NCBI GenBank assembly: GCA_043826745.1
Contig: JBDRPV010000126.1
Span: forward strand, 1-36,039
Direction: 5' to 3'
Length of the DNA: 36,039 nt
From: Parcubacteria group bacterium
GTDB taxonomy: Bacteria > Patescibacteriota > JABMPQ01
Shown: piece after piece, positions 19,227 through 36,039 of the stretch
Layout: each line of letters starts with the position of its first letter
How positions within the stretch are numbered: position 1 is the first letter of the stretch
Made by a program: the position numbers and the translations under genes
The notes under the pieces: generated by a model
What the model was told of the DNA's origin: nothing
Database searches by the model: none
The model's input: only the letters and a program-made list of their open reading frames with translations

Positions 19227-19241
19227 AAATATTATTATTAA

Positions 19242-19631: not shown

Positions 19632-19666
19632 ATTTTATTAGATTCCAGATATTAGATAATAGATAA

Positions 19667-19780: not shown

Positions 19781-19781
19781 G

Positions 19782-20078: not shown

Positions 20079-20143
20079 AAAAAAAGGTAAAGGTAATTAA
20101 AAAACCCTTTAAACGGTTTCAATTAAAATATTTATCAATTGCT

Positions 20144-21976: not shown

Positions 21977-21980
21977 TTGG

Positions 21981-22050
21981 ATAGATTGTAGATGATAGAT
22001 AATAGATTGTAGATGATAGACTTTTAATGATCTGTGATCTAAAATCTATC
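21981..22050. repeat. Tandem 19-mer direct repeat plus complementary arm (AGATTGTAGAT family)
   Basis: ATAGATTGTAGATGATAGA occurs twice (21981-21999 and 22002-22020, identical). GATCTGTGATCTAAAATCTATC (22029-22050) is imperfectly complementary to one copy. The element fills the ftsA stop to next-gene start gap. Confidence 0.75.
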
Positions 22051-23312
22051 TAAGTCTGCATTATCCTTACTACTTTGCGTAGAGCTCGATGCAACATATC
22101 TTCCTCGCCGGCTAAATCGATGGCTAAATTCGCTAAGGCCATGGGAGTAATGTCTTGTTGATTAATCAACTTGCCAGTTTTATCAACAATATTAGCCACA
22201 TCTTTGGGTTGGATAAAAGAAACTCGAGGCGGCTTGGCAAAGGGCAAATTTTTCGTCCAGGTCTCGGATAATAGGGAAGACTTAATCCCCGGCAAAACAC
22301 TACCTCCGCCACAAAGTAAAATACGAGCTGGCAAAAGATCTAAATTAGAAAACTCACTTAGAGCCAGCTCTACTCCCGATAACCAGACTTTACAATCAGC
22401 ATCTAAAATATTTTTTACCTGGCGTATTTTTTGCGTTGTTAAAGATCCTTTAGAATAATCGATTTTTACCTTTTCCGCTTCGGTGAAACTAATACCTAAC
22501 TCATTTGCTACTCGCTTAGTAAAAGCCCGCCCGCCTAGGGCAAACATTTTGGTCCCTTCTAATCCCCCGTTCCGTACTACCGCAATGTCAGTTGTACCGC
22601 CACCAACGTCCATAAAGACAGCATTGAATTCGACTGAGTCTTCAGAACCAACACAACGCGCTACAGCATAGGGCTCAGCCGCAATTGAAAGCAAATCCAT
22701 ATCTAACTCGGTAGCAATGGTTTGCAGTGCCCCCAGATGAACTAGAGGAGCATAGGCATTAAAAATCGAAATTGAAACGTCCTTACCCTGAAACCCAAGC
22801 GGGTTGGTAATTTTGTAACCGTCAATTTTTACATCAACAATCGCCGCGTTGATAAGACGAACATCCATCTCGTTGTGTCCAGTTTCCCAAGAAAGCTGTT
22901 TGCGTACTTTATCAAATGCTTTCCATTGCACCTTGTGGATAATATTTTTTAATTCGGATAGGTCAATCTTCGACTTTGGCTTCAAACGCTCATAATGGAC
23001 AGTGGTGGTGGTACCCTTGACCAGCTCACCCGCAATACCTAAGATTATTTGATCAGGTCGCACTTTGGTTTCCTCAACTGCTTCTTCTAACGCTTTTTCG
23101 CAAGTACGCACTACTCCTTCAATATCAGTTACTCCCCCGGCTTGCATATCGCCCAGCCGCTGCTGTCGACGACCCACCCCGATTACTTTTCCTTTGCCTT
23201 CAGCTGCATCTATTTCAAATATCAAAGCCTTCACTACTTCTGTCCCTATATCTAAAGCTAGAGCAAAATGCCCGACCTTCTCGCGCCGAATTATTTTATC
23301 AAAAATTCCCAT
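22050..23312 (-). CDS. ftsA: Cell division protein FtsA (actin-fold ATPase)
   Basis: 420 aa. Motifs are LALDIGTEVVKALIF, GGVTDIEGVVRTCEKALEEA, VFMDVGGGTTDIAVV and ILLCGGGSVLPG. The C-terminal LHRALRKVVRIMQT could form an amphipathic membrane-targeting helix. Confidence 0.75.
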   Translation of the reverse strand: MGIFDKIIRREKVGHFALALDIGTEVVKALIFEIDAAEGKGKVIGVGRRQQRLGDMQAGGVTDIEGVVRTCEKALEEAVEETKVRPDQIILGIAGELVKGTTTTVHYERLKPKSKIDLSELKNIIHKVQWKAFDKVRKQLSWETGHNEMDVRLINAAIVDVKIDGYKITNPLGFQGKDVSISIFNAYAPLVHLGALQTIATELDMDLLSIAAEPYAVARCVGSEDSVEFNAVFMDVGGGTTDIAVVRNGGLEGTKMFALGGRAFTKRVANELGISFTEAEKVKIDYSKGSLTTQKIRQVKNILDADCKVWLSGVELALSEFSNLDLLPARILLCGGGSVLPGIKSSLLSETWTKNLPFAKPPRVSFIQPKDVANIVDKTGKLINQQDITPMALANLAIDLAGEEDMLHRALRKVVRIMQT

Positions 23313-23360
23313 AATTATATTACAAACTGCCCGTAGTTAATTACTACCAGCTGCCAGGAT

Positions 23361-23369
23361 ATTATACCA
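23361..23369 (-). promoter_or_regulatory. Candidate extended -10 promoter for ftsA
   Basis: The minus strand reads TGGTATAAT (TGnTATAAT). It lies about 50 nt upstream of the ftsA ATG and just downstream of the preceding terminator. The -35 region is weak. Confidence 0.45.
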
Positions 23370-23380
23370 TGAATGCTGGT

Positions 23381-23417
23381 AAATAAAAAACTCTATACTC
23401 GGGGATGGTATAGAGTT
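23381..23417 (-). terminator. Intrinsic terminator ending the long operon that runs from at least 30759 to 23436
   Basis: The minus strand reads AACTCTATAC-CATCCCCGA-GTATAGAGTT followed by TTTTTTATTT. It begins 18 nt after the stop of the acidic-protein gene. Confidence 0.8.
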
Positions 23418-23435
23418 GTTATTCGCTTTATTTTA

Positions 23436-24314
23436 TTATTTCTTCCCTCGCTTTATTATTTTTTCCTTTGCTGCTTTTATTTCCGCAGCTTCTCGATCGC
23501 CTAACGAACCAATTTCAGGAGCAATGACGTCAAACTGGCGCCGCTTCATGTCTTTCCATTCGTCCGAATCTACACTAAGTTCTCTCATCTGTTCTCCTAG
23601 CTGATCCCACTCTAATTCAAGTTCTTCTTTTTTACGTCTGTACTTCAGTCCAATCTCTCCGCTAGCTCGCTTAATCTCTTCTATTGTTTTTTCTCCTGCT
23701 TGGGGGGATTTTTCTGCTTGCTCCAATCTATGTATCTCTCCTGCCAACTCATTGAACTCTTTCGTCAGCCTGGCAGACTCTTTATCCAGCCCGGCGGCTT
23801 CTTCAGGCGCCAAATCGGGATCCTCTAACATTTCCTCGATCTCATCATCCCTTTTGCTTATTTCATCACGACGTTCCCGAAGAGTATTAATTCTCTCCCA
23901 TCCTGCTTCTGGCGCTTCGGCTTGTACCTCCTCAGATGAAGCAACATCTTTTATCCCCACTTCTGCCTCTCCTTTAACACTAATAGCCTCGCTCTCCACT
24001 ACTTCAAGCTCCTGCTCAGCCTCAGCCCTCGATCCCTGAGCAGCCTTGGCATCCACACTTAATTTCCCAGGTAATTCATCAACTTTTCCCAAAGCATCTT
24101 GATGACCCGCGTCAAAAGCCGTGGCGTCTTTTCCGACCTCTTCTTGTGCAGCCTCAGCTTGTTCGCCTAATTGTCTGGGGGTTTCTGCTGATTCTTCCCA
24201 ATCTTCTCCGAGAAGCTCCGCGGCTTCTTTTTCCCTCTTTCGCATTTCCTCATCAGACATTCCCTCTGATCCTTCCCCTGGGAGCTCTTCTGCTAAATTT
24301 TCTCTTGGTGACAT
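23436..24314 (-). CDS. Highly acidic Glu-rich coiled-coil protein, unknown function
   Basis: 292 aa. I count about 61 Glu and 20 Asp, roughly 28 percent acidic. There is no TM segment or signal peptide, and the C-terminus is basic (KEKIIKRGKK). I recognise no family. Confidence 0.5.
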   Translation of the reverse strand: MSPRENLAEELPGEGSEGMSDEEMRKREKEAAELLGEDWEESAETPRQLGEQAEAAQEEVGKDATAFDAGHQDALGKVDELPGKLSVDAKAAQGSRAEAEQELEVVESEAISVKGEAEVGIKDVASSEEVQAEAPEAGWERINTLRERRDEISKRDDEIEEMLEDPDLAPEEAAGLDKESARLTKEFNELAGEIHRLEQAEKSPQAGEKTIEEIKRASGEIGLKYRRKKEELELEWDQLGEQMRELSVDSDEWKDMKRRQFDVIAPEIGSLGDREAAEIKAAKEKIIKRGKK

Positions 24315-24353
24315 AATTTTAGTTAATTAATCCTGCCCAAAAATTAAAAATAA

Positions 24354-24551
24354 TTACCCTAGCTGTCCTTTTATCTCTTCAATCTTCATTTTCTCTAATT
24401 TTTTAGTATAATCTTCAACAATCTTGTCTTGCCTTTTTTTAAGCTTCTGCAACTTAACTTTAAAATCCCGCACAGTTTTCGTGATCTTATTACTCCTTTT
24501 TTGGATTTCTGCTTTTGTGAGTTTTGATTGTGTTTTTTTCAACTGCGCCAT
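24354..24551 (-). CDS. Small basic coiled-coil protein, unknown function
   Basis: 65 aa, K/Q/E-rich heptad-like sequence (KVKLQKLKKRQDKIVEDYTKKLEKMKIEEIK). It lies 50 nt downstream of alaS on the same strand. Confidence 0.45.
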   Translation of the reverse strand: MAQLKKTQSKLTKAEIQKRSNKITKTVRDFKVKLQKLKKRQDKIVEDYTKKLEKMKIEEIKGQLG

Positions 24552-24601
24552 ATTCGTAATAAATTACCATCTTTTATTATAATATAATATTTCAATCATC
24601 A

Positions 24602-26512
24602 TCACAACACTGCTTTAATCCTCCTTACTCCGGCTCCGGAAGACTGTTCTTTTTTTATAGTGAATTTACCTAGCTCTTTGGCGTTCTTAACATGTGGACC
24701 ACCACAAAGTTCGCCCGAAACATTACCAATAGTATACACTTTTACTTTTTCGCCGTATTTGTCTTCGAAAAGTCCGATTACATTGCGTTGCTTGGCCTCA
24801 TCATAGGGCAATTCCTCGCACTTTACTTCTAGCTCAGCTATAATCCACTCGTTGACTAGCTTTTCTACTGCTGCGATTTGCTCCGGCGTCATTTTATCCC
24901 CATGACTAAAATCAAAGCGCAGACGCTCAGCGGTGATATTACTGCCTTTTTGCTGCACGTGATCACCCAGCACCTGTCGCAGAGCGGCCTGAAGCAGATG
25001 AGTGGCCGTGTGGAGCTTTGTCGTCTGCTCATCAGCATCAGCCAGTCCCCCTTTAAATTTGCCGACGGAAGCAGAGCGAGAAAGGGCTTGGTGTTTTTTA
25101 AGCTCTTCATTAAAACCTTTATCATCAAACTTTACATTTTTCTCTTCGCAAAGCTCCTGCATCATCTCTTTGGGAAAACCAAAGGTTTGATAAATATAAA
25201 AAGCGTCATCTCCATATAATATATGCTGATCCCAAGACTTACCCATATTCCCAAATTTTCCTCTAGGTTCTTGGTTGAAAGCGTAGTCATCAAATTTCTT
25301 AAGGCCTTTTATCAATGCTTTTCCAAACTTCTTCTCCTCTTCCCCCAAAGCCCTAATCACAAATTCCCGCTTTTCTTTCACTTCTGGATAAACTTCCCGA
25401 TAACCATCCATTACTATCTCCGCTAATCCAACTGTCCAAGCGTCACCCTCAATCCCGATTTGCTTACCATAACGCACCGCCCGCCTAATCAGCCGTCGCA
25501 CAACATATCCTTGATCAGATTTAGATGGCTCCACGCCATTTACATCAGCCATAATCATGGTTGCGGCTCGGATATGGTCAGCAATAATGCGCATAGCCTT
25601 CTTAACATTCTCATCGCCAGAGTCATAACTTTGCCCACTTATTTCTTCGATCTTAGCAATAATCGGTACGAAAGAATCAATCTTAAACATATCAGTTACA
25701 TCCATACTGGCCATCACCATCCGCTCTAGCCCACCACCAAAATCAATATTGTTTTGCGGCAGCGGGTCAAAGCCATCTTCCGTCTTTTTATATTGCATAA
25801 AAACGCTGTTGCCGATCTCAAGAAATCGACCGCATTCGCAATTGATATGGCATGGTTGGTCTTTGTAAGGCGACTTTTCGTGCATGCCCAGCTGCTCACC
25901 AAAATCCCAAAATACCTCGCTGTCCGGCCCTCCCGGCTCACCCACTGGCATGTTAGCTGTCATGCCACTACGTGACCACCAATTTTCTGATTCATCATAA
26001 TAAAAGATTCGGCCACCGCTCATTCCCTTTTTCTCTGCCCCATCAATTATAGTTGCTTCAACACCTACCTTGGCAAAAACCTCCTGCCACAACTTAGCTA
26101 ATTCTTCGTCACGTGGCACACCCACTTCGTCTTTCCCACTAAAAGCAGAAACGTACAACCGCTTCGGATCCAGCCCAACCACCTGCGTCAAAAACTCAAA
26201 CAGCCAGGGGATTTGCTCTTCTTTAAAATAATCTCCCAACGACCAATTACCCAACATTTCAAAAAATGTTGTGTGTCGATTATCACCCACTTCCTCAATA
26301 TCTTGCGAGCGAAAACACTTTTGCGAATCAGCCAACCGCACACCCCGCGGATGACTTTCTCCTAATAAATAGGGGACCATCGACTGCATACCCGAGCCCG
26401 TAAAAAGCGTGGTCGGATCATTTTCCGGCAACAAAGAAGCCGAGGGCAAGATCGCATGCCCCCTCTGCTTAAAAAAATCGAGGTATTTTTGCCGTAGCTC
26501 GTGTACAATCAT
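24602..26512 (-). CDS. alaS: Alanyl-tRNA synthetase, short form ending after the editing domain (no C-Ala domain)
   Basis: 636 aa. The N-terminus is LRQKYLDFFKQRGHAILPSASLLPENDPTTLFTGSGMQ. The editing-domain zinc motifs HTATHLLQAAL and ELCGGPHV are present. The protein ends at GAGVRRIKAVL, where longer AlaRS continue into a helical linker and the C-Ala domain. Confidence 0.9.
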   Translation of the reverse strand: MIVHELRQKYLDFFKQRGHAILPSASLLPENDPTTLFTGSGMQSMVPYLLGESHPRGVRLADSQKCFRSQDIEEVGDNRHTTFFEMLGNWSLGDYFKEEQIPWLFEFLTQVVGLDPKRLYVSAFSGKDEVGVPRDEELAKLWQEVFAKVGVEATIIDGAEKKGMSGGRIFYYDESENWWSRSGMTANMPVGEPGGPDSEVFWDFGEQLGMHEKSPYKDQPCHINCECGRFLEIGNSVFMQYKKTEDGFDPLPQNNIDFGGGLERMVMASMDVTDMFKIDSFVPIIAKIEEISGQSYDSGDENVKKAMRIIADHIRAATMIMADVNGVEPSKSDQGYVVRRLIRRAVRYGKQIGIEGDAWTVGLAEIVMDGYREVYPEVKEKREFVIRALGEEEKKFGKALIKGLKKFDDYAFNQEPRGKFGNMGKSWDQHILYGDDAFYIYQTFGFPKEMMQELCEEKNVKFDDKGFNEELKKHQALSRSASVGKFKGGLADADEQTTKLHTATHLLQAALRQVLGDHVQQKGSNITAERLRFDFSHGDKMTPEQIAAVEKLVNEWIIAELEVKCEELPYDEAKQRNVIGLFEDKYGEKVKVYTIGNVSGELCGGPHVKNAKELGKFTIKKEQSSGAGVRRIKAVL

Positions 26513-26516
26513 CTTT

Positions 26517-26732
26517 TTATGCTTCTAACTTCATTCTAGTCGCGTCTTTCTTCAATCTTTTTTCGTTCGTATATAGTTCCTCTAGCTCGCCTTCGAGTAA
26601 TTCTTTTTTTCTTTCCAAATCACTAATATCTTTTTTTAACCCTCTAACTTCTTTCTCTCGTTTGCCAATATCCTCCCGGAGGTCATCTAACGCTTCTTGA
26701 ATTCTCACTTTGGGATCGTTGAAATATGCCAT
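26517..26732 (-). CDS. Small charged coiled-coil protein, unknown function
   Basis: 71 aa (KREKEVRGLKKDISDLERKKELLEGELEELYTNEKRLKKD). It is wedged between mnmA (5-nt gap) and alaS (4-nt gap). Confidence 0.5.
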   Translation of the reverse strand: MAYFNDPKVRIQEALDDLREDIGKREKEVRGLKKDISDLERKKELLEGELEELYTNEKRLKKDATRMKLEA

Positions 26733-26737
26733 ATTTT

Positions 26738-27889
26738 TTAATTAACTTTTTTTATTATTCCCCCTCCTATTAATTCATCTCCCTGATAAAATACAATCGA
26801 TTGTCCCGGCATCACGGCTCGCTGAGGAATTTCCAACTGGGCGCGATAGATTTCTCCGTCCTGCTCAACGATCTTTGCCTCCACTGGTTTTGTATTATAC
26901 CGCACTACCGCTTCGGAGACTAGGGGCAGGGACGGTTCCCGGCCACTCACCCAACTGGCTTCAGAAAAACTTACCACAGCTGAATATAATCCCTTATCTT
27001 GTTTATCACTTGTCACAATCAAAGCATTGCTCGCAAAATCACGGTCGAGAACATAATATGGTCCGCTACCGCCAATCTTAATCCCCTTTCGCTGGCCAAT
27101 AGTATAGGCCTGTAAACCATGATGTTTTCCTAACTCCCGACCATCTTTATCAACAATAAGACCTTCCTTACCTGCACCCAAATTTCGAACTAAAAAATTA
27201 TCTACACTATCGTCAACAAAACACAGATCTTGGCTTTCCTTAGAAGCCGCAACTGGTAAATCCAGCTCGCGCGCTATTTTTCTAACCTCATCTTTTGTAT
27301 ATTTGCCAACAGGAAAAAGTAGGTGCTTGAGTTGATCTTGCTGGAGATTATACAAAAAGTATGATTGATCTTTATCTGCGTCTTTGGCTTTGAAGAGCTG
27401 GTGCTTGACTAACTCATTTTTGCCGAGTGAACTTTGTGAACTTTCTTCTGGGAAAGTTTGCAGCGAACGAGGTAATGATGAGTTAGTCAAAATAACATAG
27501 TGCCCCGTAGCTAGGTAATCAAATCCAAGCTCTCTCACTTTATCAAGCAGCAAACCAAATTTTATCTCTCGATTGCAAACCACACAAGGATTAGGTGTTA
27601 TATGATCCTTATATCCGACGATAAATTCATCCACTACTGCCTGTTTGAATTGATCCTTAAAATCCAACGTATAAAAGGGGATAGATAGCTGCTTAGCCAC
27701 TACTCTCACCTTTTGTTCTGATTCACTAGAACAACAACGGTTTTCACGCTGGCAAGCCCGCTCATCATGCCAAAAATACATAAAAAAGCCTGTCACTTCA
27801 TAGCCTGCTTTTTGTAAAAGAGCGGCCGCCACCGCCGAGTCTACTCCTCCCGACATAGCCACCGCTACTTTATTACTATCTTTAGTCAT
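26738..27889 (-). CDS. mnmA: tRNA 2-thiouridine(34) synthase MnmA
   Basis: 383 aa. Contains the PP-loop VAVAMSGGVDSAV and the catalytic-Cys region PNPCVVCNREIKFG, followed by KDQSYFLY and DLCFV. The start overlaps the upstream stop (TAATG). Confidence 0.92.
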   Translation of the reverse strand: MTKDSNKVAVAMSGGVDSAVAAALLQKAGYEVTGFFMYFWHDERACQRENRCCSSESEQKVRVVAKQLSIPFYTLDFKDQFKQAVVDEFIVGYKDHITPNPCVVCNREIKFGLLLDKVRELGFDYLATGHYVILTNSSLPRSLQTFPEESSQSSLGKNELVKHQLFKAKDADKDQSYFLYNLQQDQLKHLLFPVGKYTKDEVRKIARELDLPVAASKESQDLCFVDDSVDNFLVRNLGAGKEGLIVDKDGRELGKHHGLQAYTIGQRKGIKIGGSGPYYVLDRDFASNALIVTSDKQDKGLYSAVVSFSEASWVSGREPSLPLVSEAVVRYNTKPVEAKIVEQDGEIYRAQLEIPQRAVMPGQSIVFYQGDELIGGGIIKKVN

Positions 27890-29472
27890 TATCGACTATG
27901 ATTGTTAACTTTCACTACTTGCCCCGGTCTTACTCCTGAATTTCTACTTTTATTCTGCGGCGGTCTGGTAGTCTGTCTATCGTTTTTTCCCACGCTGGTT
28001 GTGCCTGCACCCTTCAATGCTACTGCAAAAGCTTTTTTGAAAGGTTGATGACTTTTATCCTCTTTCTTCGCTTGCGGTCGCGCCAATCGATCATTCCCCC
28101 GGTCAGAAGAACGACTACCGCCACCAGAAGGGCGACTACCACTTGGACTACCAGAAGACCGCGCCGAAGATTTCTCATCATCATCCATTACTCCACTCCA
28201 CCGCGCAATTTTGTCTTCAACTACGTCTCGCTTTTTAGCATAGCGCTCGCGTGAAATAGCAATAATTTTATCTCGGTTACCCTCAGTATCCCATAGCGGT
28301 GGTAACGTCGTGGCCGAGAAAGCCTGACTAGCCACTCCCTCTATCATCAACTTCAGATAGACATGAAATTTAGTTAGATTAACTAGGTCAGTTTCATCAA
28401 AAACTGGTTCAAACTCTTTGACTAGTACTTCGGCATCAGCTGCTCCAATTCGAAAACAGACGATCGTACCGACATTACCAAAAACAGCATAGCGAACTTC
28501 CTCGGCTAGCTGATCTATATACTGATGAGCCATTATCAAATCTAGATGATATTTACGCGCTTCAGACAAGATATCAGCAAAACTCTCGGTGGCAAAATTT
28601 TGAAACTCATCAACATAGAGATAAAAATCAGCTCGTTCTTCCTCGGGAATATCAACTCGACTCATCGCTGCCAGCTGAACCTTGGTAATTACCATCGCTC
28701 CAAAAAGAGCTGAAGCATCCTCACCTACTCTTCCTTTAGCTAAATTAAGCAATAATATTTTCCGGTTATCCATGATGTCACGCATATCCAGAGTTGACTT
28801 AGACTGCCCGACAATATTTCTAATCAAGGAAATTGATAAGAATTGACCAACTTTATTCTGAATCGGAGCGATCGCTTCTGTCATAAACTTATCTGGGTAC
28901 TTGGAAAATTCATCCACCCAAAAAGACTTTACAACTGGATCCTGCACTTTCTTGATCACTTTGTTGCGAAAAGCCTTGTCCGTCAGCATTTTCATAATAC
29001 CCAGCAAAGTACTGCCCGGATAATCCATCAAAGCAAGAATAGTATTGCGTAAAACGTATTCCAAGCGCGGCCCCCAAGAATCAGCCCATATTTTCTTAAA
29101 TACACCTAGTAGCCCAGAAGCCACCAGATGTTTATGATCAGGATCAACGTTCTCCATCACATTAAAAGCAATCGGATTATCAACATCGCCGGGATTAAAA
29201 TAGACAACGTCGTTGATCCGATCAGCCGGAACATAATCAAGCATTTTGTCAGCAAACTCGCCATGCGGATCAACCACACAGACGCCATTGCCGGCCTTAA
29301 TATCAGAAATCACCATATTCTCCATCATGGTCGTTTTGCCCATGCCAGTTTTTCCAACTACATACATGTGCCGCCGCCGATCGTCTACCTTAATACCAAA
29401 ACGACGTTTCTGACCCCGAAAGTTAGTTTCGCCAAATAGGGTAACGTCTGATTGTGGGTTTTGGTTTTCCAT
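27889..29472 (-). CDS. VirD4/TraD/TraG-like (type IV coupling protein-like) P-loop NTPase lacking an N-terminal membrane anchor
   Basis: 527 aa. Walker A is GKTGMGKT (residues 40-47) and Walker B is FYLYVDEF (residues 283-290). The ARKYHLDLIMAHQYIDQL...FGNVGTIVCF block resembles the C-terminal TraG/VirD4 module. No hydrophobic N-terminus is present. The last roughly 95 aa are Ser/Gly/Arg/Lys-rich and look disordered. Confidence 0.7.
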   Translation of the reverse strand: MENQNPQSDVTLFGETNFRGQKRRFGIKVDDRRRHMYVVGKTGMGKTTMMENMVISDIKAGNGVCVVDPHGEFADKMLDYVPADRINDVVYFNPGDVDNPIAFNVMENVDPDHKHLVASGLLGVFKKIWADSWGPRLEYVLRNTILALMDYPGSTLLGIMKMLTDKAFRNKVIKKVQDPVVKSFWVDEFSKYPDKFMTEAIAPIQNKVGQFLSISLIRNIVGQSKSTLDMRDIMDNRKILLLNLAKGRVGEDASALFGAMVITKVQLAAMSRVDIPEEERADFYLYVDEFQNFATESFADILSEARKYHLDLIMAHQYIDQLAEEVRYAVFGNVGTIVCFRIGAADAEVLVKEFEPVFDETDLVNLTKFHVYLKLMIEGVASQAFSATTLPPLWDTEGNRDKIIAISRERYAKKRDVVEDKIARWSGVMDDDEKSSARSSGSPSGSRPSGGGSRSSDRGNDRLARPQAKKEDKSHQPFKKAFAVALKGAGTTSVGKNDRQTTRPPQNKSRNSGVRPGQVVKVNNHSR

Positions 29473-29484
29473 CGATAATATAGA

Positions 29485-30759
29485 TTACTCCATCGGCAAA
29501 TCACCTGGCGGCATTCCCTTGCCAGACTCGGCCGTAACAACGGCTGGTGACTTAACTGTGATATAGGGAAAGTGAAACACCGTGGCCAGTTCTTCAACAC
29601 TCATGATAAATGGCTGCGCTCCGGCATCAACATCTCGCGATTGATAACGACGAATCAAATTGGTTTGACGAGGAGGAATGCGGGTTTTCTTCCAATAAGA
29701 AATAAAGGTCCAGTACTTTTTATGGGGCTTGAAAGAATTTAGGTTATTTGAATTAAAACCTTTAAAGGTTCCCATCATTGGGAAACCAATCCGTTTTTTG
29801 TTGAATACATCTTTGCGTCCTAAATACAGTGTCCGAACTTTTACTTGAAAACCGCCCTTACTAATGTTCTCCTGTATGGCTTTGACTGCATCTTGTTCTC
29901 CCGGTGATAAAAATAGCATTTCACTGGGTGGAGCGTCCTTAGTATTTGTTTTGCCTTGAGCTGCATCAGCTGGCTCAATCGCGCTAACTGCCGTCTGTAC
30001 TCCCTTCAAAAACAAAGGATTGTATGGCTTCCCCTTACGCTTAATAAGTTTATCAACAAGTTTATCACCATCTTTTTTCCACTTATCGCTGACTGGGCGG
30101 AGAATATACTGATACCAGATTTGTTCCCCATCCCCAATTCTACTCATCACCTCCAGGGCGTTAGAGAGAGGGTCAATAAACTTCTCTTCACTCATATCAT
30201 CCAAAAAATGCTTATAAGTCCGGATAGGATAAGCGTCTTCTCTCTCGAGTTTCCACTCCACCCCTACCATATCATACTGATCATTGGGAAATTTACTGGG
30301 AATAAACTGCGCGTAGTCATCGACTTCAATAATCTCCGCTTCTGGATACTGAGCATAGACGTTAGCTTCAACATGATCACGTAAGATAGTCGGCACGCGG
30401 ATAATAAAACGGATTTGCCCAGCCACACTGGCAATCTCTAGGCTAAATGTATTTTGGGATTCACCTTCAAAATATTTTTCTTTAAAATTAGGGGGCGAAT
30501 AAATAGTCCAAAGACCATTTAAAACCTCTTCCATTGACTTCGGGTTTTTCTCGTTGTCTTCGGGAACACTGATAGCTAACTGGATGTATTCGATGGAACG
30601 AACATACTTTATCCGCATGTAATTAAGCCAGACATAGTACAGTACGGCCAAAAACCCTGGAATAATTAACCACCATATTTTCCGCCCAACAGAAAAAAAC
30701 ATGTACCAAAATTCGTACAAATAACTAAAGAAATCAAGTGGTGGTAACTCCTCAAACAC
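29485..30759 (-). CDS. Membrane protein of unknown function, partner of the coupling-protein-like ATPase
   Basis: 424 aa. The track start is a GTG at 30759; an in-frame ATG lies at codon 20, so the true start is uncertain. A hydrophobic N-terminus (FFSYLYEFWYMFFSV, IWWLIIPGFLAVLYYVWLNY) is followed by MRIKYVR and a soluble domain of about 370 aa. It ends 12 nt before the ATPase gene. Confidence 0.55.
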   Translation of the reverse strand: MFEELPPLDFFSYLYEFWYMFFSVGRKIWWLIIPGFLAVLYYVWLNYMRIKYVRSIEYIQLAISVPEDNEKNPKSMEEVLNGLWTIYSPPNFKEKYFEGESQNTFSLEIASVAGQIRFIIRVPTILRDHVEANVYAQYPEAEIIEVDDYAQFIPSKFPNDQYDMVGVEWKLEREDAYPIRTYKHFLDDMSEEKFIDPLSNALEVMSRIGDGEQIWYQYILRPVSDKWKKDGDKLVDKLIKRKGKPYNPLFLKGVQTAVSAIEPADAAQGKTNTKDAPPSEMLFLSPGEQDAVKAIQENISKGGFQVKVRTLYLGRKDVFNKKRIGFPMMGTFKGFNSNNLNSFKPHKKYWTFISYWKKTRIPPRQTNLIRRYQSRDVDAGAQPFIMSVEELATVFHFPYITVKSPAVVTAESGKGMPPGDLPME

Positions 30760-30825
30760 AAGTCAAGATTAATGCCTTTATTTTTGTATTATATAACACC
30801 TCGTTAGTAGAGAGAAGAGATAAAT

Positions 30826-31908
30826 TTAGGCTAGGGTATAGGATTGTTTATCAACTCGCTGAAAACGTTTTGTGTTTTGCAAAGCCAAGGCAACCGTATT
30901 ACGTTTGACCATTCTTTGTTCTAAAACCTTAGAGATAATTTCATCTTTAGCCATGGGCTTGCCGGCTGCTTGCAAAACATGTTCGACCACATCAGCTACT
31001 GTCCCGGAGCTATATCCCCAGTCAGTCAGTCCATAAATACCCCGCCCAACTAAAACAAAACGCTTATCCTTGATCAACTCATTGTGCACAGTCTGGGAAA
31101 TTGCCTGTCGGCCCCCAAAGCTTATTTCATTGATCTTGTCCGTGATTTCTTTGAAGTGGAGAGGCTTACCGTTCTTTTTGAGTACTAGAAAAGCTTTATC
31201 TTTCACACCCTTAGGTACTATTTCATTCCAACTAGTAAATCCCCATTCAGCAAAAGGATTTTTTAATATTTTCTTGCCTAATTTCAAATAAGACTGGACA
31301 TGTTTAGCTTCAGAAACATCATGATTCTGAACTGTCTCGTGCTGTAAAATATGTTTTACAATTTCTGCTTCCGATAGAGGCTTGTTTTGCTTTTTTAATA
31401 CTTGGTGAGCAGCTTCGATAACTTTTCGCGGTATTTCAATGGAGCTGCCTTTTGTACCCCAGGCTTTATAAGTATGCTCTGTGTTATCATGACAATCAAA
31501 CTTATTACTGAGATTTAAAATAAAATCAACCACATTGCCATGTGTTTTAGCTGGTGATATTCTCTCTATAAAAGTATCTACCAGATGATTATGTTCCATA
31601 ACCTGGCCATGCTCAGCAATAACTGACTCCAATAGTGATTCACAAGGCTCAACTGCCTTTATCTTATTACCTTTTTGCAAATCTTTCAGAGCAGCTGACT
31701 CGATTTGTCGAACCCGCTCTCTAGTAATATCATGATTTTTACCGATTTCTTCCAACGTTTGGCGACGATCGCTATCCAGCCCAAAGCGCTTGACTAAAAT
31801 ATCTTTGGTTCTAGGCTTTAAGCTAGAGATTAGCTTGAACACAAAATCAGTGGGAAGCACTTGCACTCCCGCTTGACGGTTAGAGTTATTATTTATCTGA
31901 TTAGTCAT
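30826..31908 (-). CDS. DNA-binding protein: N-terminal sigma-70 region-4-like HTH followed by tandem HARE-HTH-like modules
   Basis: 360 aa. LKPRTKDILVKRFGLDSDRRQTLEEIGKNHDITRERVRQIESAALKDL closely resembles sigma-70 region 4, but regions 2 and 3 are absent. Later repeats look like HARE-HTH: KKQNKPLSEAEIVKHIL, LKKNGKPLHFKEITDKI...RFVLVGRGIYGLTDWG and QAAGKPMAKDEIISKVL...RFQRVDKQSYTL. Confidence 0.6.
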   Translation of the reverse strand: MTNQINNNSNRQAGVQVLPTDFVFKLISSLKPRTKDILVKRFGLDSDRRQTLEEIGKNHDITRERVRQIESAALKDLQKGNKIKAVEPCESLLESVIAEHGQVMEHNHLVDTFIERISPAKTHGNVVDFILNLSNKFDCHDNTEHTYKAWGTKGSSIEIPRKVIEAAHQVLKKQNKPLSEAEIVKHILQHETVQNHDVSEAKHVQSYLKLGKKILKNPFAEWGFTSWNEIVPKGVKDKAFLVLKKNGKPLHFKEITDKINEISFGGRQAISQTVHNELIKDKRFVLVGRGIYGLTDWGYSSGTVADVVEHVLQAAGKPMAKDEIISKVLEQRMVKRNTVALALQNTKRFQRVDKQSYTLA

Positions 31909-31967
31909 CGGCTTACTTTCTTTATATTAAACAATTTATTAATACGTTTAACTTATCTCCTTATCAG

Positions 31968-31996
31968 AGTGTATCACAAACTCCCAACATTGTCAA
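31968..31996 (-). promoter_or_regulatory. Candidate sigma-70-type promoter (proximal) for the region-4/HARE-HTH gene
   Basis: The minus strand reads TTGACA, a 17-nt spacer, then TACACT. It lies about 60 nt upstream of the ATG at 31908. Confidence 0.5.
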
Positions 31997-32028
31997 CATC
32001 AATTTTGCCTTTTCTGAACGATCATGAC

Positions 32029-32056
32029 ATAATATCAATTTTTCATTTCCCGTCAA
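32029..32056 (-). promoter_or_regulatory. Candidate sigma-70-type promoter (distal) for the region-4/HARE-HTH gene
   Basis: The minus strand reads TTGACG, a 16-nt spacer, then TATTAT. The -10 is preceded by TGA, giving an extended -10 (TGnTATTAT). Confidence 0.5.
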
Positions 32057-32182
32057 GGGATTTTTGCTAAATTTAGCACCTAGTTGACTGTATTGCCTTT
32101 AAATAAAGGACTTTGTCCTTTGTTTACTTGTTCAATCAGAAAGGCAAAAAATAAATTTTTGCTTTTCATTCGTTCACTGCGT

Positions 32183-32223
32183 AAATAAACAAAAACCCCA
32201 TTTACAATTTCTGGAGTTTTTGG
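32183..32223 (-). terminator. Intrinsic terminator after the sugar-transferase gene
   Basis: The minus strand reads CCAAAAACTCC-AGAAATTGTAAAT-GGGGTTTTTG followed by TTTATTT. The stem is about 10 bp with one G-U pair. Confidence 0.65.
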
Positions 32224-32249
32224 TCTAATTCTGCTGGCTGGAAAACAAC

Positions 32250-33632
32250 TTAATGGGCAGCTTCTGCTTGCAAAACAATCTTGACAGTACGCAATAAAAT
32301 CTGCAAATCCATTTTTAGCGCCCAATTTTCAATATAATAAGTGTCTAGCTTTACTTCTTCAGCAAAAGAGAGATCTGAGGCACCACTTACCTGTCCCATT
32401 CCAGTCATTCCCGGCTTGATGGCTAACACTTTTCGCTGATGCTTCTGATATTGCGCTACCTCTTCTGGTTCGTGGGGACGCGGACCAATCAAGCTCATGT
32501 CATCCTTAAGCACATTTAGCAACTGAGGTAGCTCATCGATCCTAGTTTTACGCAAGAATCTACCTACCCGAGTAATGCGCGGATCATTTTTCATTTTAAA
32601 TAACGGCCCCTGGCGTTCGCTAAACTTAAGCAGGTCTTTCTTCATTTTGTGGGCATCTTTAACCATCGAGCGGAATTTGAACATGTCAAATTCACCATCT
32701 CTACCTACTCGCTTTAATCTAACTAATACCGTTCCTGGCGTATTCAATTTAATAACAATGGCGACAGCTACAAATAAAGGCAATAAAAATATCAGCCCCA
32801 ATGTCGCGCCTGCCACATCAACAATTCGTTTAATGATCTTTCCCCAGCCATCGAGCGGGGTGCGTCGAAATTCCACCAGGGGAAAGCCAGCAACAGCCCT
32901 TACTTCAATATTAGTAGCCTCCGTGCCAAAAAGATCAGGAATGTATTTCATATCAATTTTGCGCTCGTCAGCAAAGTCAATTAGCTCCAGGACCTTTGTC
33001 TTGGGAATAGCGGGATCAGTTTGAATAATTTCATCCACTCCTTGATTTTGCGAAAATTGCTCTAATTTCTGTAACGTGTCGCCATTTACCTCATTTAGAG
33101 TGCCTACTACTTTATAGCCGGAAAGTGGATTTTGGAAACTATCTTTGATGTGTCTAGCAGCGGAAGTGTCACCAATCAACACGACTCGATGTACCCCGTA
33201 GTTATATTTATACAATCGGTGCTGTAGCCAACGAATTAGTGATCGACCCAGCACTATTAAAATTATTGCTAGTAACCAAGTCACTAATACTAAAAAACGA
33301 GAGGAAAAAAGTTCCGCTCGTAAGAATATATATAACACAATTCCCATTACTCCAGTGGATACTCCGACAAAAACGCTATATAGGTCATCAACTAATCGAC
33401 GCTTTTTCTTCGGGTTGTAAAGACCCAGCAGGGCGAAAATAAGCAGCCAAACGGGAGTGACTACTATTGCCAGCAAAAGATACTGCCGAAGAGGTAAATT
33501 AAACTGCACCGGCCATATCTCCACTACTCGGTCAGAAAAACGAATAAAGTAGGTGACAACTGCCGCCAAAATTATCATCAAGAAATCTACTGGAACCAAG
33601 GCAGCTGTAAAAGCTAATTCGGATTTTTTCAT
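32250..33632 (-). CDS. Polyprenyl-phosphate glycosyl-1-phosphate transferase (WbaP/bacterial sugar transferase family)
   Basis: 460 aa. Four or five N-terminal TM helices are followed by a central linker domain. The C-terminal catalytic domain carries KRIVDVAGATLGLIFLLPLF, MFKFRSM, GPLFKMKNDPRITRVGRFLRKTRIDELPQLLNVLKDDMSLIGPRP and YIENWALKMDLQILLRT. Confidence 0.9.
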   Translation of the reverse strand: MKKSELAFTAALVPVDFLMIILAAVVTYFIRFSDRVVEIWPVQFNLPLRQYLLLAIVVTPVWLLIFALLGLYNPKKKRRLVDDLYSVFVGVSTGVMGIVLYIFLRAELFSSRFLVLVTWLLAIILIVLGRSLIRWLQHRLYKYNYGVHRVVLIGDTSAARHIKDSFQNPLSGYKVVGTLNEVNGDTLQKLEQFSQNQGVDEIIQTDPAIPKTKVLELIDFADERKIDMKYIPDLFGTEATNIEVRAVAGFPLVEFRRTPLDGWGKIIKRIVDVAGATLGLIFLLPLFVAVAIVIKLNTPGTVLVRLKRVGRDGEFDMFKFRSMVKDAHKMKKDLLKFSERQGPLFKMKNDPRITRVGRFLRKTRIDELPQLLNVLKDDMSLIGPRPHEPEEVAQYQKHQRKVLAIKPGMTGMGQVSGASDLSFAEEVKLDTYYIENWALKMDLQILLRTVKIVLQAEAAH

Positions 33633-33671
33633 CGAGGGATATTATCTTGTGCTTGGATCTAAGTATATACC

Positions 33672-34306
33672 AAAAAGTCCAAGCAAACAATAAGCCGAGT
33701 TTTGTACCGATTTCATCCGAACGAAACGAGGTTTGAAATCGAGTATTCCGCTTCGGCGAGATCTCTCAGCCCCCAAAGGAAGACCAACTTCAAACCAACT
33801 TCGCTCGGATTAATCGTGATGATCATCTATCTAGTCCCGACATCGCTGTCGGGATCAAGCGACTAATAATTTGTCTTGCACCAGGCAGGGTTTACCAGGC
33901 ACTCATGTTACCATGAGGCCAAACGGGTAGCCTTCATGAAAAACATCCCGCTTCTTTTCACCTTTCACCAATGCTCCGCATTGGAAATTCCAACTATCAA
34001 ATCACAATCTCCAAGCAAATGACAAACTACAATTTACAATAATCAAACAGTTTGAAATTTGGTGCTTGTGACTTGGAATTTCCGGTGCGAAGCACCGGTT
34101 AGTATTGTCTCTGCGGCACTCCCGCCAAAGCGGGACCACGACTGCTGTCGAGGTTTCCCTAAAATTCAAGCTAATCACAAGTCCGCGGGACTCCTAATTA
34201 CCTTTCTTTTGGTTGCCGTTAGCAACTGCCATTTTTGATGGTGCTCGGACTTTCCTCCCACTGCGGCCTTGCGGCTACAGAAGGCGATCATCTCGTTTGC
34301 TTGGAC
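33672..34306 (-). ncRNA. rnpB: RNase P RNA (bacterial, type-A-like core) with large helical expansions, about 635 nt
   Basis: Conserved blocks on the minus strand: GGAGGAAAGTCCGAGCAC (34241-34258), AGTGCCGCAGAGACAATAC (34102-34120), GGTAAACCCTGCCTGGTGCAAGACAAAT (about 33871-33898) and ACAAAACTCGGCTTAT (33690-33705). P1 pairs TCCAAGCAAAC (34295-34305) with GTTTGCTTGGA (33678-33688). P2 pairs GAGATGATC with GATCATCAC. A promoter lies immediately upstream. Confidence 0.88.
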
Positions 34307-34312
34307 TGGGAC

Positions 34313-34341
34313 ATAGTAACAGGATTCATGGCAAAAGTCAA
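34313..34341 (-). promoter_or_regulatory. Candidate promoter of rnpB
   Basis: The minus strand reads TTGACT, a 17-nt spacer, then TACTAT. The predicted start is about 7 nt downstream, at the first nucleotides of helix P1. Confidence 0.6.
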
Positions 34342-34342
34342 C

Positions 34343-34376
34343 TCAAACAAAAATCCCAGCTTTCACAACTGGGATT
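34343..34376 (-). terminator. Intrinsic terminator after gatB
   Basis: The minus strand reads AATCCCAG-TTGTGAAAG-CTGGGATT followed by TTTGTTTG. It starts about 20 nt after the gatB stop. Confidence 0.75.
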
Positions 34377-34396
34377 GCGAAAAATCATAAATAATT

Positions 34397-35884
34397 TTAG
34401 CCAATCTTCCCCTTCAACGCCTCCCGCGCCACCTGCGGATCCGCTTTCCCCTTCGTGGCTGCCATCACTTGCCCAACCATAAACTGTAGGGCATTTCCCT
34501 TGCCCGCCTTATAGTCTCCCACTGGTCCCGGATTATCAGCTACCACCTTATCAATAATACCACTAAGCTCATCACTATCCCCTAGCTGCGCCAAATCAAG
34601 ATCCTCCACCACCTGCGAAGGATCTGAGCCTTTAGTAAACATCACTGCCAGCACCTTCTCGGCCGCTGAAGAATTTACCTTACCTTCGTGGATCATCGCC
34701 ATCAACTCCGCAAAGTTCTCAGCTGTAACTTTACAATCAGCCAAGCTAATTCCCTCTTTATTTAGTAATTTGAATAATGGCGAAGTAATCCAATTAAATG
34801 TTTGTTTAATAACTTTCTTAGCTTCCTCACTTAGAACTTCGTCTTTGCCCTCGAATGATTTAATCCACTCCTGAGCCTCCGAAATAACATTCTCAAAAAA
34901 CTCGCCCACCGCCCGGTCATCAACTAACATTTCTGCTTCTTCTGTCTTTAGCCCATATTGTTTTTCTAGTCGCTGGCGACGTTCTTCGGGTAATTCTGGT
35001 AAACTTGTTCGGATTTTATCTAACTGTTCTTTAGTAAAAGTCAACGGCGGCAAATCGGGATCGGGGAAATAGCGATAATCAGCCTCACCTTCCTTAGTCC
35101 GCTGCTCAACCGTTTCGCCCAGGTCATCATTCCAACCGCGGGTTGCCTGGTGTAATTCTTTGCCTGCATCTAGCACCTCCGTCTGCCGGCCAACTTCGTA
35201 AAGCAAGGCTTGCTCGACCGCCTTAAAAGAATTGAGATTTTTAATTTCAGTCTTGGGCAATAACTCCTTGTAGCCCTCCGGACGCAAGGAAATGTTAGCA
35301 TCACAACGTAGCTGCCCTTTTTCCATATCAGCGTTAGACACCCCAATATAAAGTAAAATCTTGCGTAACTTTTGTAAGAAAATACGCGCTTCCTGAGGAG
35401 TACGGATGTCGGGTTTGGTCACGATTTCCATTAGTGGCGTGCTGGCTCGATTATAGTCTACTAGGCTGTAATTGGCTCCATCCGGATGTAGCAACTTGCC
35501 GGCATCTTCTTCCAGGTGAATCCGCTCCAACCTTACCTTTTTAATCTCACCCTCATCTTTTATCTCTAAATATCCTTCACCACACAACGGCTTATCATAC
35601 TGGGAGATCTGGTAACCCTTCGGCAAGTCAGGATAAAAGTAATTTTTGCGGTCAAATTTAGACTCAGTCGGAATATCACAATGCAAAGCCTGACCAGACA
35701 TTATCGTCCACTCGACAGCCTGTTTGTTGATAGTTGGCAACACACCGGGATGACCCAGGCAAACCGAACAAACATTTTTGTTCGGCTCTGTCGGCTCTGC
35801 CTTATTGGGACAGCTACAGAACATCTTTGATTTTGTCTTGAGCTGGACATGTATTTCCAGCCCGATGATAGTTTCGTAAGGCAT
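34397..35884 (-). CDS. gatB: Asp-tRNA(Asn)/Glu-tRNA(Gln) amidotransferase subunit B
   Basis: 495 aa. The N-terminus is MPYETIIGLEIHVQLKTKSKMFCSC...CSVCLGHPGVLP. It also contains RIHLEEDAGK and RKNYFYPDLPKGYQISQ, plus a C-terminal YqeY-like tail. Confidence 0.95.
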   Translation of the reverse strand: MPYETIIGLEIHVQLKTKSKMFCSCPNKAEPTEPNKNVCSVCLGHPGVLPTINKQAVEWTIMSGQALHCDIPTESKFDRKNYFYPDLPKGYQISQYDKPLCGEGYLEIKDEGEIKKVRLERIHLEEDAGKLLHPDGANYSLVDYNRASTPLMEIVTKPDIRTPQEARIFLQKLRKILLYIGVSNADMEKGQLRCDANISLRPEGYKELLPKTEIKNLNSFKAVEQALLYEVGRQTEVLDAGKELHQATRGWNDDLGETVEQRTKEGEADYRYFPDPDLPPLTFTKEQLDKIRTSLPELPEERRQRLEKQYGLKTEEAEMLVDDRAVGEFFENVISEAQEWIKSFEGKDEVLSEEAKKVIKQTFNWITSPLFKLLNKEGISLADCKVTAENFAELMAMIHEGKVNSSAAEKVLAVMFTKGSDPSQVVEDLDLAQLGDSDELSGIIDKVVADNPGPVGDYKAGKGNALQFMVGQVMAATKGKADPQVAREALKGKIG

Positions 35885-35931
35885 GAATTATTTATGAGAT
35901 TGGTTATCCTGTTATGCCTCGAAAATACGTC

Positions 35932-36017: not shown

Positions 36018-36039
36018 AAAATCCTTCAAAATATATCAG

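Follow-up and report, generated by a model that had tools for sequence, protein, structure and literature searches.

Type IV coupling proteins (T4CPs) such as TrwB of plasmid R388, VirD4, TraD and TraG possess a P-loop domain of the FtsK/HerA superfamily with a helical insert, the all-alpha domain. In TrwB, VirD4 and TraD an N-terminal transmembrane (TM) domain is part of the same polypeptide. In this work, a gene pair was analysed from a stretch of 36,039 nucleotides (nt) that is referred to as the window (contig JBDRPV010000126.1, assembly GCA_043826745.1, Parcubacteria group bacterium). One gene of the pair encodes an ATPase of 527 amino acids (aa) that shares the P-loop domain and an all-alpha-like insert with these T4CPs but has no N-terminal TM domain. 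The other gene encodes a protein of 424 aa, here called the partner, that would be a separate anchor and would have a large cytoplasmic domain, which is absent from canonical T4CPs. The two genes very likely represent one T4CP that is split at a domain boundary, where the 424-aa protein is the N-module (a TM helix and an alpha/beta domain of ~340 residues) and the 527-aa protein is a TrwB/VirD4-type motor whose disordered, basic tail holds putative docking motifs. Unlike TrwB and VirD4, the pair is chromosomal and unusually conserved, and relaxase and type IV secretion system (T4SS) genes are not found nearby.

Coupling proteins and related ATPases with separately encoded parts have been described. 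It has been proposed that TraI of plasmid pIP501 anchors the membrane-less T4CP TraJ (review, PMC12857230). Compared by that description, TraJ and TraI are similar to the window pair in that a soluble coupling ATPase accompanies a separately encoded membrane protein. However, TraI is small, has two TM helices and no large cytoplasmic domain, and TraJ and TraI are plasmid-borne within a complete conjugation operon. The window pair is also similar to VirB3-VirB4 in its combination of a membrane helix, an N-domain and a motor, and the split VirB4 of pSK41/pGO1 (TrsD and TrsE) demonstrates that N-terminal parts of such ATPases can be separate genes (PMC12102498). In contrast to VirB4 (TrwK), the window motor is of T4CP type, and the partner exhibits no profile similarity to TrwK, TrsD or the VirB4 N-domain.

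Widespread T4CP homologues that are unlinked to virB4 are already on record for Patescibacteria. It has been reported that 2,918 of 3,035 genomes (96%) carry a total of 5,713 VirD4-type homologues, of which 148 are near virB4, while VirB4 is present in 2,417 genomes (80%) and relaxases in 103 (PMC12102498). The T4SS of the phylum is of the monoderm (MPF-FATA) type and mostly without relaxases, and a possible exaptation of the T4CP has been suggested (Quinonero-Coronel et al. 2025, PMC12102498). Candidatus (Ca.) Southlakia epibionticum ML1 (Saccharimonadia) encodes SEML1_0293, a T4SS DNA-binding-domain protein of 921 aa with a P-loop domain at residues 361-795 (PMC10633639, Tables S1/S2) whose family has been counted among the core families and among those enriched in Patescibacteria (Wang et al. 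2023, PMC10633639). The window ATPase appears to be of the same T4SS-type family. Because of the coordinates of its P-loop domain, SEML1_0293 is apparently a fused orthologue of the partner and the ATPase, whereas the window pair is split. No paper was found in the literature on the partner family, on its relation to T4CPs or on the phage relatives described below, and none on PF26449, on HARE-HTH in bacteria of the Candidate Phyla Radiation (CPR) or on TrsD with the VirB4 N-domain.

The motor and its membrane partner

Both genes lie on the minus strand of the window in one frame, and 12 nt separate the stop codon of the partner from the ATG of the ATPase. Both open reading frames (ORFs), their coordinates and their spacing had been reported by an earlier reading made from the letters of the DNA alone (the sequence-only reading), and they are present as described in the window sequence and its translation. 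The ORFs are not products of chance. The partner family comprises 3,764 clusters at 50% identity (E <= 1e-3), and the search with the ATPase returned at least 8,000 candidates. The nearest homologues of both proteins, among the matches listed, are all from Patescibacteria/CPR genomes. The features of the pair are as follows.

29485-30759, minus strand: partner gene, 424 aa, GTG start; very probably the membrane-anchor and N-domain subunit of a split coupling protein
30616-30681, minus strand: predicted TM helix of the partner, residues 27-48, KIWWLIIPGFLAVLYYVWLNYM; hydropathy peak 1.63, inside the long model helix 10-55
29560-30588, minus strand: alpha/beta domain of the partner, predicted to be cytoplasmic, residues 58-400; motifs YAQYPEAE (30334-30357) and EELATVFHFP (29566-29595) and conserved columns
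29494-29511, minus strand: conserved PPxxLP motif near the C-terminus of the partner, within a tail predicted to be disordered; P418, L421 and P422 invariant
27889-29472, minus strand: ATPase gene, 527 aa; VirD4/TrwB-type coupling ATPase without a membrane domain
29332-29355, minus strand: Walker A motif GKTGMGKT of the ATPase, residues 40-47; G40, K41, T42, G43, M44, G45 and K46 invariant in 30 homologues
28603-28623, minus strand: Walker B motif YLYVDEF of the ATPase, residues 284-290; D288 and E289 invariant in 30 homologues
28507-28560, minus strand: ARKYHLDLIMAHQYIDQL block of the ATPase, residues 305-322; candidate arginine finger R306 and candidate sensor glutamine Q317
27892-28191, minus strand: C-terminal tail of the ATPase, predicted to be disordered, residues 428-527, rich in Ser, Gly, Arg and Lys by composition; predicted local distance difference test (pLDDT) score below 50

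The ATPase exceeds the Pfam gathering cut-offs of TrwB_AAD_bind (42.2 bits, cut-off 20.5), T4SS-DNA_transf (22.2 bits, cut-off 20.1) and TraG-D_C (24.1 bits, cut-off 22), and DUF87 is likewise matched above its cut-off. The named T4CP subfamilies of NCBIfam (TraD and VirD4-like CD1115) are not reached, as the best scores are 49 bits versus 366 and 42 bits versus 250. Among PDB sequences, only TrwB of R388 (2e-7 by profile) and DotL are meaningful matches. The AlphaFold2 (AF2) model of the ATPase is confident for the core (residues 10-427). The best Foldseek match of the ATPase in the PDB is TrwB-deltaN70 (E 8e-12, TM-score 0.62 over ~415 residues), which occupies the top 32 structure matches (E ~1e-11, TM-score 0.61-0.64) and is followed by HerA, DotL, Cag-beta and the C-domain of DndH. 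Residues 111-235 of the model are helical and are placed like the all-alpha domain of TrwB.

Around the ARKYHLDLIMAHQYIDQL block, the residues E304, A305, R306, K307, Y308, H316 and Q317 are invariant in the 30 homologues, and the block aligns with the TrwB block ...GRKAGLRVVAGLQS. R306 would be the arginine finger and Q317 the sensor. The FGNVGT motif is found at residues 331-336. Since the two Walker motifs as well as R306 and Q317 do not vary among the 30 homologues, the ATPase is predicted to be very probably catalytically active. No TM-like segment was found in the ATPase, where the maximum 19-residue Kyte-Doolittle mean is 1.37. The VirD4/TraD-like family call of the sequence-only reading, the motifs GKTGMGKT, YLYVDEF and FGNVGT that it had named and the missing N-terminal TM helices are all confirmed by these results.

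The presence of HerA and the C-domain of DndH among the structural neighbours, a PADLOC match to mad8 (7e-17, 59.8 bits) and weak HerA matches (<=35 bits) would be consistent with the ATPase of an anti-phage defence system of the HerA, DndH or MADS type. We consider such a role highly improbable. The T4CP-specific Pfam models and TrwB score higher, the neighbouring genes match no defence component, and the partner has no meaningful PADLOC match, its best one being to a reverse-transcriptase model (E 0.0075). The near-universal presence and the conserved synteny of the pair are also unlike patchy defence islands. Nothing on mad8 was found in the MADS literature.

A replacement of FtsK was also considered and has been dropped, as the FtsK_SpoIIIE Pfam model is not matched (13.2 bits versus a cut-off of 24, P-loop only) and an annotated ftsK is already present in Saccharibacteria, where the papers on TM7x list such a gene. 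Southlakia likewise has a second P-loop protein, the FtsK-like SEML1_0142 (PMC10633639). FtsK is absent among the top 50 structural matches of the ATPase.

The tail of the ATPase had been described by the sequence-only reading as rich in Ser, Gly, Arg and Lys, and the final ~97 residues indeed hold 16 Ser, 11 Arg, 11 Gly and 10 Lys. However, the tail is not mere low complexity. It contains the conserved short motifs PFKKAFAVALKG (28009-28044) and RPGQVVKV (27907-27930). The length of the tail varies among relatives, where an [IV]SLxxAxK-like helix and a terminal KPGQVIKF-like motif recur, and both are present in the window copy. A treble-clef zinc finger (CxxC..CxxC, PF23477) is found in the tail of 42 of 64 relatives and is absent from the window copy.

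The AF2 model of the partner (pLDDT 81.9, predicted TM-score 0.77) exhibits one continuous helix at residues 10-55, and its residues 401-424 have pLDDT below 50. The PPxxLP motif sits where the fused homologues run on into the ATPase. The window partner has no match in NCBIfam or in the Pfam release that predates PF26449, and no Pfam or NCBIfam family was found for 40 members of the partner family in scans up to E <= 10. A precomputed match to PF26449.1 is present in 117 of the 120 best partner homologues, one of which is 92% identical to the window protein. The partner, which the sequence-only reading could not place in any family, thus has homologues that carry PF26449 and can be placed as the N-domain of a T4CP lineage.

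The CPR partners follow the positive-inside rule, with a mean net charge of -0.6 before the helix and +1.75 after it. In the fused proteins the soluble domain follows the single TM helix and precedes the ATPase. It must therefore be cytoplasmic, and the orientation predicted from these sequences is N-out/C-in with the large domain in the cytoplasm. The concern of the sequence-only reading that the partner might be wholly extracytoplasmic is removed, as the fused proteins and the charge rule both place the domain inside.

Chains of R388 TrwK/VirB4 take all of the top 13 places among the Foldseek matches of the partner in the PDB (E 8e-5 to 2.5e-3, probability 0.98-1.0). The TM-score of these matches is only ~0.35 and their root-mean-square deviation is 9-12 A, and the aligned residues are not reported by the search. 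No other P-loop ATPase in the PDB was significantly matched, and because of this the match is taken to concern the N-terminal domain of VirB4 itself. The hhalign comparisons of the partner with TrwK, with TrsD of pSK41 and with an 18-sequence alignment of VirB4 N-domains each gave a probability below 1%, and CagE_TrbE_VirB (PF03135) was not matched by the 40 family members at E <= 10. Since every profile comparison is negative, the likeness to VirB4 comes from Foldseek only. It may be regarded as a lead on deep ancestry and not as family membership.

Fused relatives on plasmids and phages

Relatives beyond the CPR were traced from weak homologues of the partner. The linear plasmid of Embleya sp. 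NBC_00896 encodes one 812-aa protein of the 'conjugative DNA transfer family' (WP_331738717) that matches both halves of the pair. Its residues 79-396 are collinear with the partner profile (hhalign E 1.6e-3, 300 columns) and its residues 398-788 match the ATPase profile (probability 100, E 9e-48), with a seamless junction. The Embleya T4CP has a single N-terminal TM helix that is followed by a basic stretch. Decayed copies in which the partner domain is in frame with the P-loop are found on megaplasmids of Priestia and Pontibacillus, and the Priestia ORF matches the Embleya protein by tblastn (E 5e-18) with both parts spanned. On a plasmid of Halomontanus, the two parts are separate adjacent genes, which is similar to the CPR.

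Both parts of the Priestia fused ORF are also matched by tblastn in the Bacillus phages SPO1 (gp27.4, 906 aa), SPO1-like, CP-51, JL and G (gp156). Residues 79-357 of SPO1 gp27.4 align collinearly to the partner profile (hhalign E 1.1e-4, 261 columns). By phmmer, gp27.4 matches CPR ATPases (1e-15 to 1e-25) and, weakly, three CPR partners; it has no TM helix. The model of the partner was also compared with viral models by Foldseek, and phage G gp156 (6e-17), phage JL (1e-15) and phage Slash (7e-15) were matched. The membership of phage G gp156 and of the JL 'Msb' protein is backed by the partner-model fold match and the Priestia-ORF tblastn only. In the Embleya T4CP and SPO1 gp27.4, both halves are thus homologous and collinear to the two genes of the window, with the difference that these proteins are single polypeptides on a plasmid or phage while the window has two chromosomal genes. 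No published function was found for the fused plasmid and phage proteins.

The Embleya gene is accompanied by genes for a TrbL-like protein, PrgI (VirB3-like), a VirB4-like ATPase, a Replic_Relax protein and an NlpC/P60 protein. In SPO1 (L087, 3779-9289), an actin-like partition protein of the Alp/ParM type, gp27.4 and gp27.3 are encoded in a row. The last of these belongs to the Replic_Relax family and is annotated as a nicking replication initiator. This row is a plasmid-like transfer/partition module within a classic lytic phage, and no T4SS gene was found within ~6 kb of gp27.4. The Halomontanus neighbours are a VirB6-like protein, a second TraG-D_C ATPase and a protein with an NrS-1-type primase-polymerase domain. 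In the elements where the intact form was found outside the CPR, this form is one polypeptide beside a Replic_Relax protein. In contrast, phmmer matched Replic_Relax (PF13814) to no ORF at E <= 0.01 in the 80 CPR loci introduced below or in bases 19001-36039 of the window. Together with the split-T4CP reading, it is very likely that the lineage stems from conjugative plasmids of actinobacteria and haloarchaea and from Bacillus phages, all of them mobile elements of prokaryotes with a single membrane.

Conservation and gene neighbourhood in Patescibacteria

The related set consists of 80 species-level Patescibacteria loci (L001-L080) that were found with the partner profile. Of the 75 loci with room for it, 65 have an ATPase homologue directly downstream of the partner and on its strand, with a median gap of ~9 nt. 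The sequence-only reading had proposed to survey the adjacency of the two genes in relatives and had suggested that the partner could supply the missing anchor. The adjacency has been found, and the suggestion is supported by it, by the one TM helix of the partner and by the single polypeptide in Embleya, SPO1 and the decayed Bacillaceae copies. In Patescibacteria, the split coupling protein is a chromosomally domesticated and conserved gene pair without a nearby relaxase.

The gene that is found most consistently upstream of the pair is the following one, here called the sigma-r4/HARE-HTH gene.

30826-31908, minus strand: gene of 360 aa with sigma-70 region 4 (31672-31830) and HARE-HTH repeats (30829-31416)

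Its product matches Pfam Sigma70_r4 (4.5e-14) and HARE-HTH (2.1e-19, three stretches) and an NCBIfam RNAP-delta model (53 bits, cut-off 42), and its PDB matches are to SigA region 4. The gene is directly upstream of the pair in 56 of 76 loci, and the complete trio is found in 48 of 71. In Southlakia, SEML1_0294 is directly upstream of SEML1_0293 on the same strand and has been reported as essential, Patescibacteria-enriched and annotated as 'RpoS' (PMC10633639). The architecture of SEML1_0294 is that of the window protein, with sigma-r4 and HARE-HTH in three winged helices, so that the window ATPase and SEML1_0293 also share this upstream gene on the same strand.

Identities to the window's proteins were measured in the related CPR loci. 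The median identity is 67.5% for the ATPase core, 42.9% for alanyl-tRNA synthetase (AlaRS), 39.0% for MnmA, 37.5% for the sigma-r4/HARE-HTH protein and 36.8% for the partner. The identity of the ATPase is 58-76% over 70 CPR loci except for one copy of 46%, which is encoded 7 kb from the partner on the opposite strand (L062). The ATPase exceeds AlaRS in 20 of 20 loci with alaS and MnmA in 24 of 24 loci with mnmA. This high conservation of the ATPase is the most striking quantitative result of the analysis.

Additional T4CP-like ATPase ORFs are present a few kb from the pair in L034 (67-2088), L062 (15923-17179, minus strand) and L052 (4-618), and they agree with published data, in which a genome has on average about two T4CP homologues. 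An apparent CPR fusion of the partner and the ATPase (L035, 5242-8292, 1,016 aa) was rejected as an artefact, in which a masked run of N removes the stop codon and the N-terminus of the ATPase. Several genome records with the CPR-specific block (L004, L009, L014, L024, L026, L028 and others) bear the title 'uncultured Gammaproteobacteria bacterium' or 'Candidatus Binatia bacterium', and the organism labels of such metagenome-assembled genomes look unreliable.

The genes secD-secF are upstream of the block in 54 of 80 loci and secA in 20 (such as L003 4482-6750 and L041 1323-7692), and secF is immediately before the partner in 15. Such linkage, and the presence of DotL and Cag-beta among the structural matches of the ATPase, would be expected if the pair recruits or energises the secretion of proteins (effectors or pilins) with Sec or a T4SS. 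The T4CPs of effector systems such as DotL and Cag-beta recruit proteins. A role in protein export is nevertheless improbable. The secDF genes are away from the pair in the window and in Southlakia (in the window, a sugar transferase gene, RNase P RNA and gatB are found upstream of the pair instead), the closer relatives of the pair are linked to relaxase-like DNA proteins, and synteny of core genes in reduced genomes is weak functional evidence. As a separate observation, SecD in L041 (4970-6778) and L043 (2683-4761) has a PpiC-type rotamase domain inserted between the P1 subdomains, which is an unusual foldase fusion.

Downstream of the pair, mnmA is found in 20 of 45 loci and alaS in 18 of 45 at distances of 0.5-6 kb. 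Because the linkage is this frequent only and the distance is variable, the tight overlap of the ATPase with mnmA in the window, which is not kept in the related CPR loci, is a local and not a defining feature. The sequence-only reading had seen the pair as hard-wired into a tRNA-modification/aminoacylation operon. This view does not hold across the loci, where the recurrent neighbours are the sigma-r4/HARE-HTH gene and secDF. The remaining features around the pair in the window are as follows.

27887-27891, minus strand: TAATG, where the stop codon of the ATPase overlaps the start codon of mnmA; read from the sequence
23381-23417, minus strand: intrinsic-terminator-like hairpin that closes the gene string of ATPase, mnmA, alaS and three smaller ORFs; read from the sequence
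31968-32056, minus strand: two sigma-70-like promoter matches (TTGACG-16-TATTAT and TTGACA-17-TACACT) upstream of the sigma-r4/HARE-HTH gene

The hairpin consists of a perfect 10-bp stem (AACTCTATAC/GTATAGAGTT) and a 9-nt loop, followed by the T-run TTTTTTATTT. It was missed by the automatic terminator scan, whose loop limit is 8 nt. Both promoter matches have 10 of 12 consensus positions and a TG, and since their number is not above the shuffled expectation, they are consensus matches only. In the window, good promoter-like matches are found only upstream of the sigma-r4/HARE-HTH gene, and a possible start of the transcription unit may be located there. The gene string downstream of the ATPase starts with mnmA. 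A coiled-coil ORF of 71 aa separates mnmA from a short alaS, after which an ORF of 65 aa and an acidic ORF of 292 aa follow.

The other genes identified in the window are all housekeeping genes, including mreBC, an aminoacyl-tRNA synthetase gene, an RseP-like protease gene, frr, holB, murA, rpsM/K/D, rpoA, an ftsA-like gene, alaS, mnmA, gatB and RNase P RNA. Genes for a T4SS, a relaxase or an integrase and tRNA genes were not found in the window, and its G+C content ranges from 0.37 to 0.46 without a local shift at the pair. The TAATG overlap, the terminator and the lack of relaxase, T4SS and integrase genes in the window had all been noted by the sequence-only reading and are borne out. Since plasmids and phages carry the closest relatives from outside the CPR, the pair might not be a host gene pair but what remains of an integrated conjugative element or prophage, or cargo of such an element. 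We regard this origin of the present locus as very unlikely, in view of the housekeeping flanks, the even G+C content, the lack of the mobile-element genes named above, the recurrence of the syntenic block across 80 species-level genomes and the very strong purifying selection on the ATPase.

Some other genes of the window are unusual in their own right. The three small ORFs of the mnmA/alaS string on the minus strand (26517-26732, 71 aa, coiled-coil; 24354-24551, 65 aa, lysine-rich; 23436-24314, 292 aa, highly acidic and Glu/Ala-rich) have weak coiled-coil-type Pfam matches or none, and no family. The product of alaS (24602-26512, minus strand) is 636 aa, and its relatives align across all 636 residues. 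A typical bacterial AlaRS is ~870 aa, so the window AlaRS may have lost C-terminal domains. A 610-aa ORF without a Pfam match (20144-21976, minus strand) has the ftsA-like gene (22050-23312) on one side and the ribosomal-protein/rpoA cluster on the other. The class-A RNase P RNA (33676-34303, minus strand) covers the 367-position model at full length with 628 nt (146 bits) and would thus have large insertions relative to the consensus.

Possible roles of the pair

The findings in this work can be combined into a mechanism in which the pair is coupled to the T4SS of the phylum. The mechanism as a whole, which we infer from the evidence above, has close to an even chance of being correct, if slightly less. 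The partner would use its cytoplasmic domain and its C-terminal PPxxLP tail to hold the motor at the cytoplasmic membrane. The motor would form a hexamer like TrwB, and hydrolysis of nucleoside triphosphate would drive the binding of a substrate. This substrate would most probably be DNA, given the properties of the T4CP family and the Replic_Relax and primase-polymerase neighbours of the relatives. The motor would then pass the substrate to a membrane channel, most plausibly the chromosomal T4SS (VirB4/VirB3/VirB6) that occurs across the phylum and is encoded elsewhere. The tail motifs (with the zinc finger in relatives), and possibly the DNA-binding sigma-r4/HARE-HTH protein, would provide contacts to substrates or adaptors. 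The activity would be dispensable for growth in laboratory co-culture. The handover to the T4SS is the weakest step of this mechanism.

Several points weigh against this reading. The contacts of the partner with the ATPase and of the pair with a T4SS are hypothetical. In about 10 of the 75 loci, most clearly those of the Magasanikbacteria type (order secA-secD-secF, partner, dnaG-rpoD), no ATPase adjoins the partner. No T4SS or relaxase gene was found within ~8 kb on either side of the partner in the 80 loci. The conservation of the ATPase core is far above that usual for T4SS parts, and the lineage may work without a T4SS, as judged from the lack of a T4SS gene within ~6 kb of SPO1 gp27.4. 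T4CP homologues also occur in more genomes (96%) than VirB4 (80%; PMC12102498).

The genetic data from Southlakia bear on the same question. The T4SS genes of Southlakia have been reported as essential, whereas SEML1_0293 is non-essential at three time points by transposon sequencing, with normalised reads of 5,817, 2,940 and 1,372, a drop of only ~4-fold over two passages (PMC10633639). The sequence-only reading had regarded the pair as part of a core cellular machine and not of a conjugative element. The chromosomal housekeeping context agrees with this view, while the non-essentiality of the apparent orthologue SEML1_0293 does not. It is well established for VirB/D4 systems that pilus biogenesis is independent of the T4CP. 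The non-essentiality of SEML1_0293 could therefore still fit a coupling to the T4SS, as pilus biogenesis can proceed without a T4CP.

Alternatively, the pair may be an exapted DNA motor that, alone or with ComEC or another channel and without a T4SS, pulls in, expels or tethers DNA. It could serve in transformation uptake, in nucleotide salvage or in the handling of chromosomal DNA at the membrane, with the sigma-r4/HARE-HTH protein as a possible adaptor. We consider this alternative possible, though rather unlikely. It would agree with a T4CP that is unlinked to virB4 and commoner than VirB4, for which exaptation has been raised (PMC12102498), with the non-essentiality of SEML1_0293 next to an essential T4SS, and with phage relatives that have no T4SS gene within ~6 kb. 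The DNA-processing neighbours of the relatives (Replic_Relax in Embleya and SPO1 and the NrS-1-type primase-polymerase domain in Halomontanus), the exceptional conservation of the ATPase and the sigma-r4/HARE-HTH gene before the pair in 56 of 76 loci point in the same direction. So does an NCBIfam match to CedD, a DNA-import ATPase of archaea, although this match is weak (33.8 bits) and covers the N-terminal region only.

However, no channel partner was found for such a motor. ComEC has been reported as non-essential (PMC12857230), and nucleotide salvage by DNA uptake is therefore not vital. The adjacency of the sigma-r4/HARE-HTH gene may reflect operon history only. Since this gene is essential in Southlakia and the ATPase is not, the two proteins do not share a single indispensable function, which also counts against the exapted motor. 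A more far-reaching form of this alternative appears more doubtful still. It describes a phylum-wide DNA-handling machine independent of the T4SS. A coupling-protein motor would have been taken over from the transfer/replication module of a plasmid or phage, and the loss of the relaxase and a division into anchor and motor would have followed. Such a machine would move or tether DNA at the membrane of these ultra-small symbionts (for example import of host DNA or export into the host), maybe with the sigma-r4/HARE-HTH protein.

The preferred reading remains that the two genes of the window are one coupling protein in two parts. New in this work are the two-gene architecture and the placement of the partner as the N-domain of the T4CP itself. 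Also new are the fused relatives that plasmids and classic phages of Bacillus encode, the conservation of the pair as a trio with a sigma-r4/HARE-HTH gene that is essential, and the extreme degree to which the motor is conserved. Patescibacteria, which live on other cells, account for much of the diversity of bacteria, and the T4SS that they retain is essential for this way of life. The coupling-protein homologue that is present in 96% of Patescibacteria genomes is now read as a two-gene unit that is kin to plasmid T4CPs and to phage proteins such as SPO1 gp27.4, and its membrane/N-domain half was previously covered by a DUF-type entry only. The annotation of the partner should be corrected so that it counts as part of the T4CP, and surveys of T4CPs will misjudge this lineage if they presuppose a membrane domain or a fixed length. 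These findings also give experimental handles in Southlakia, the one genetically tractable member.

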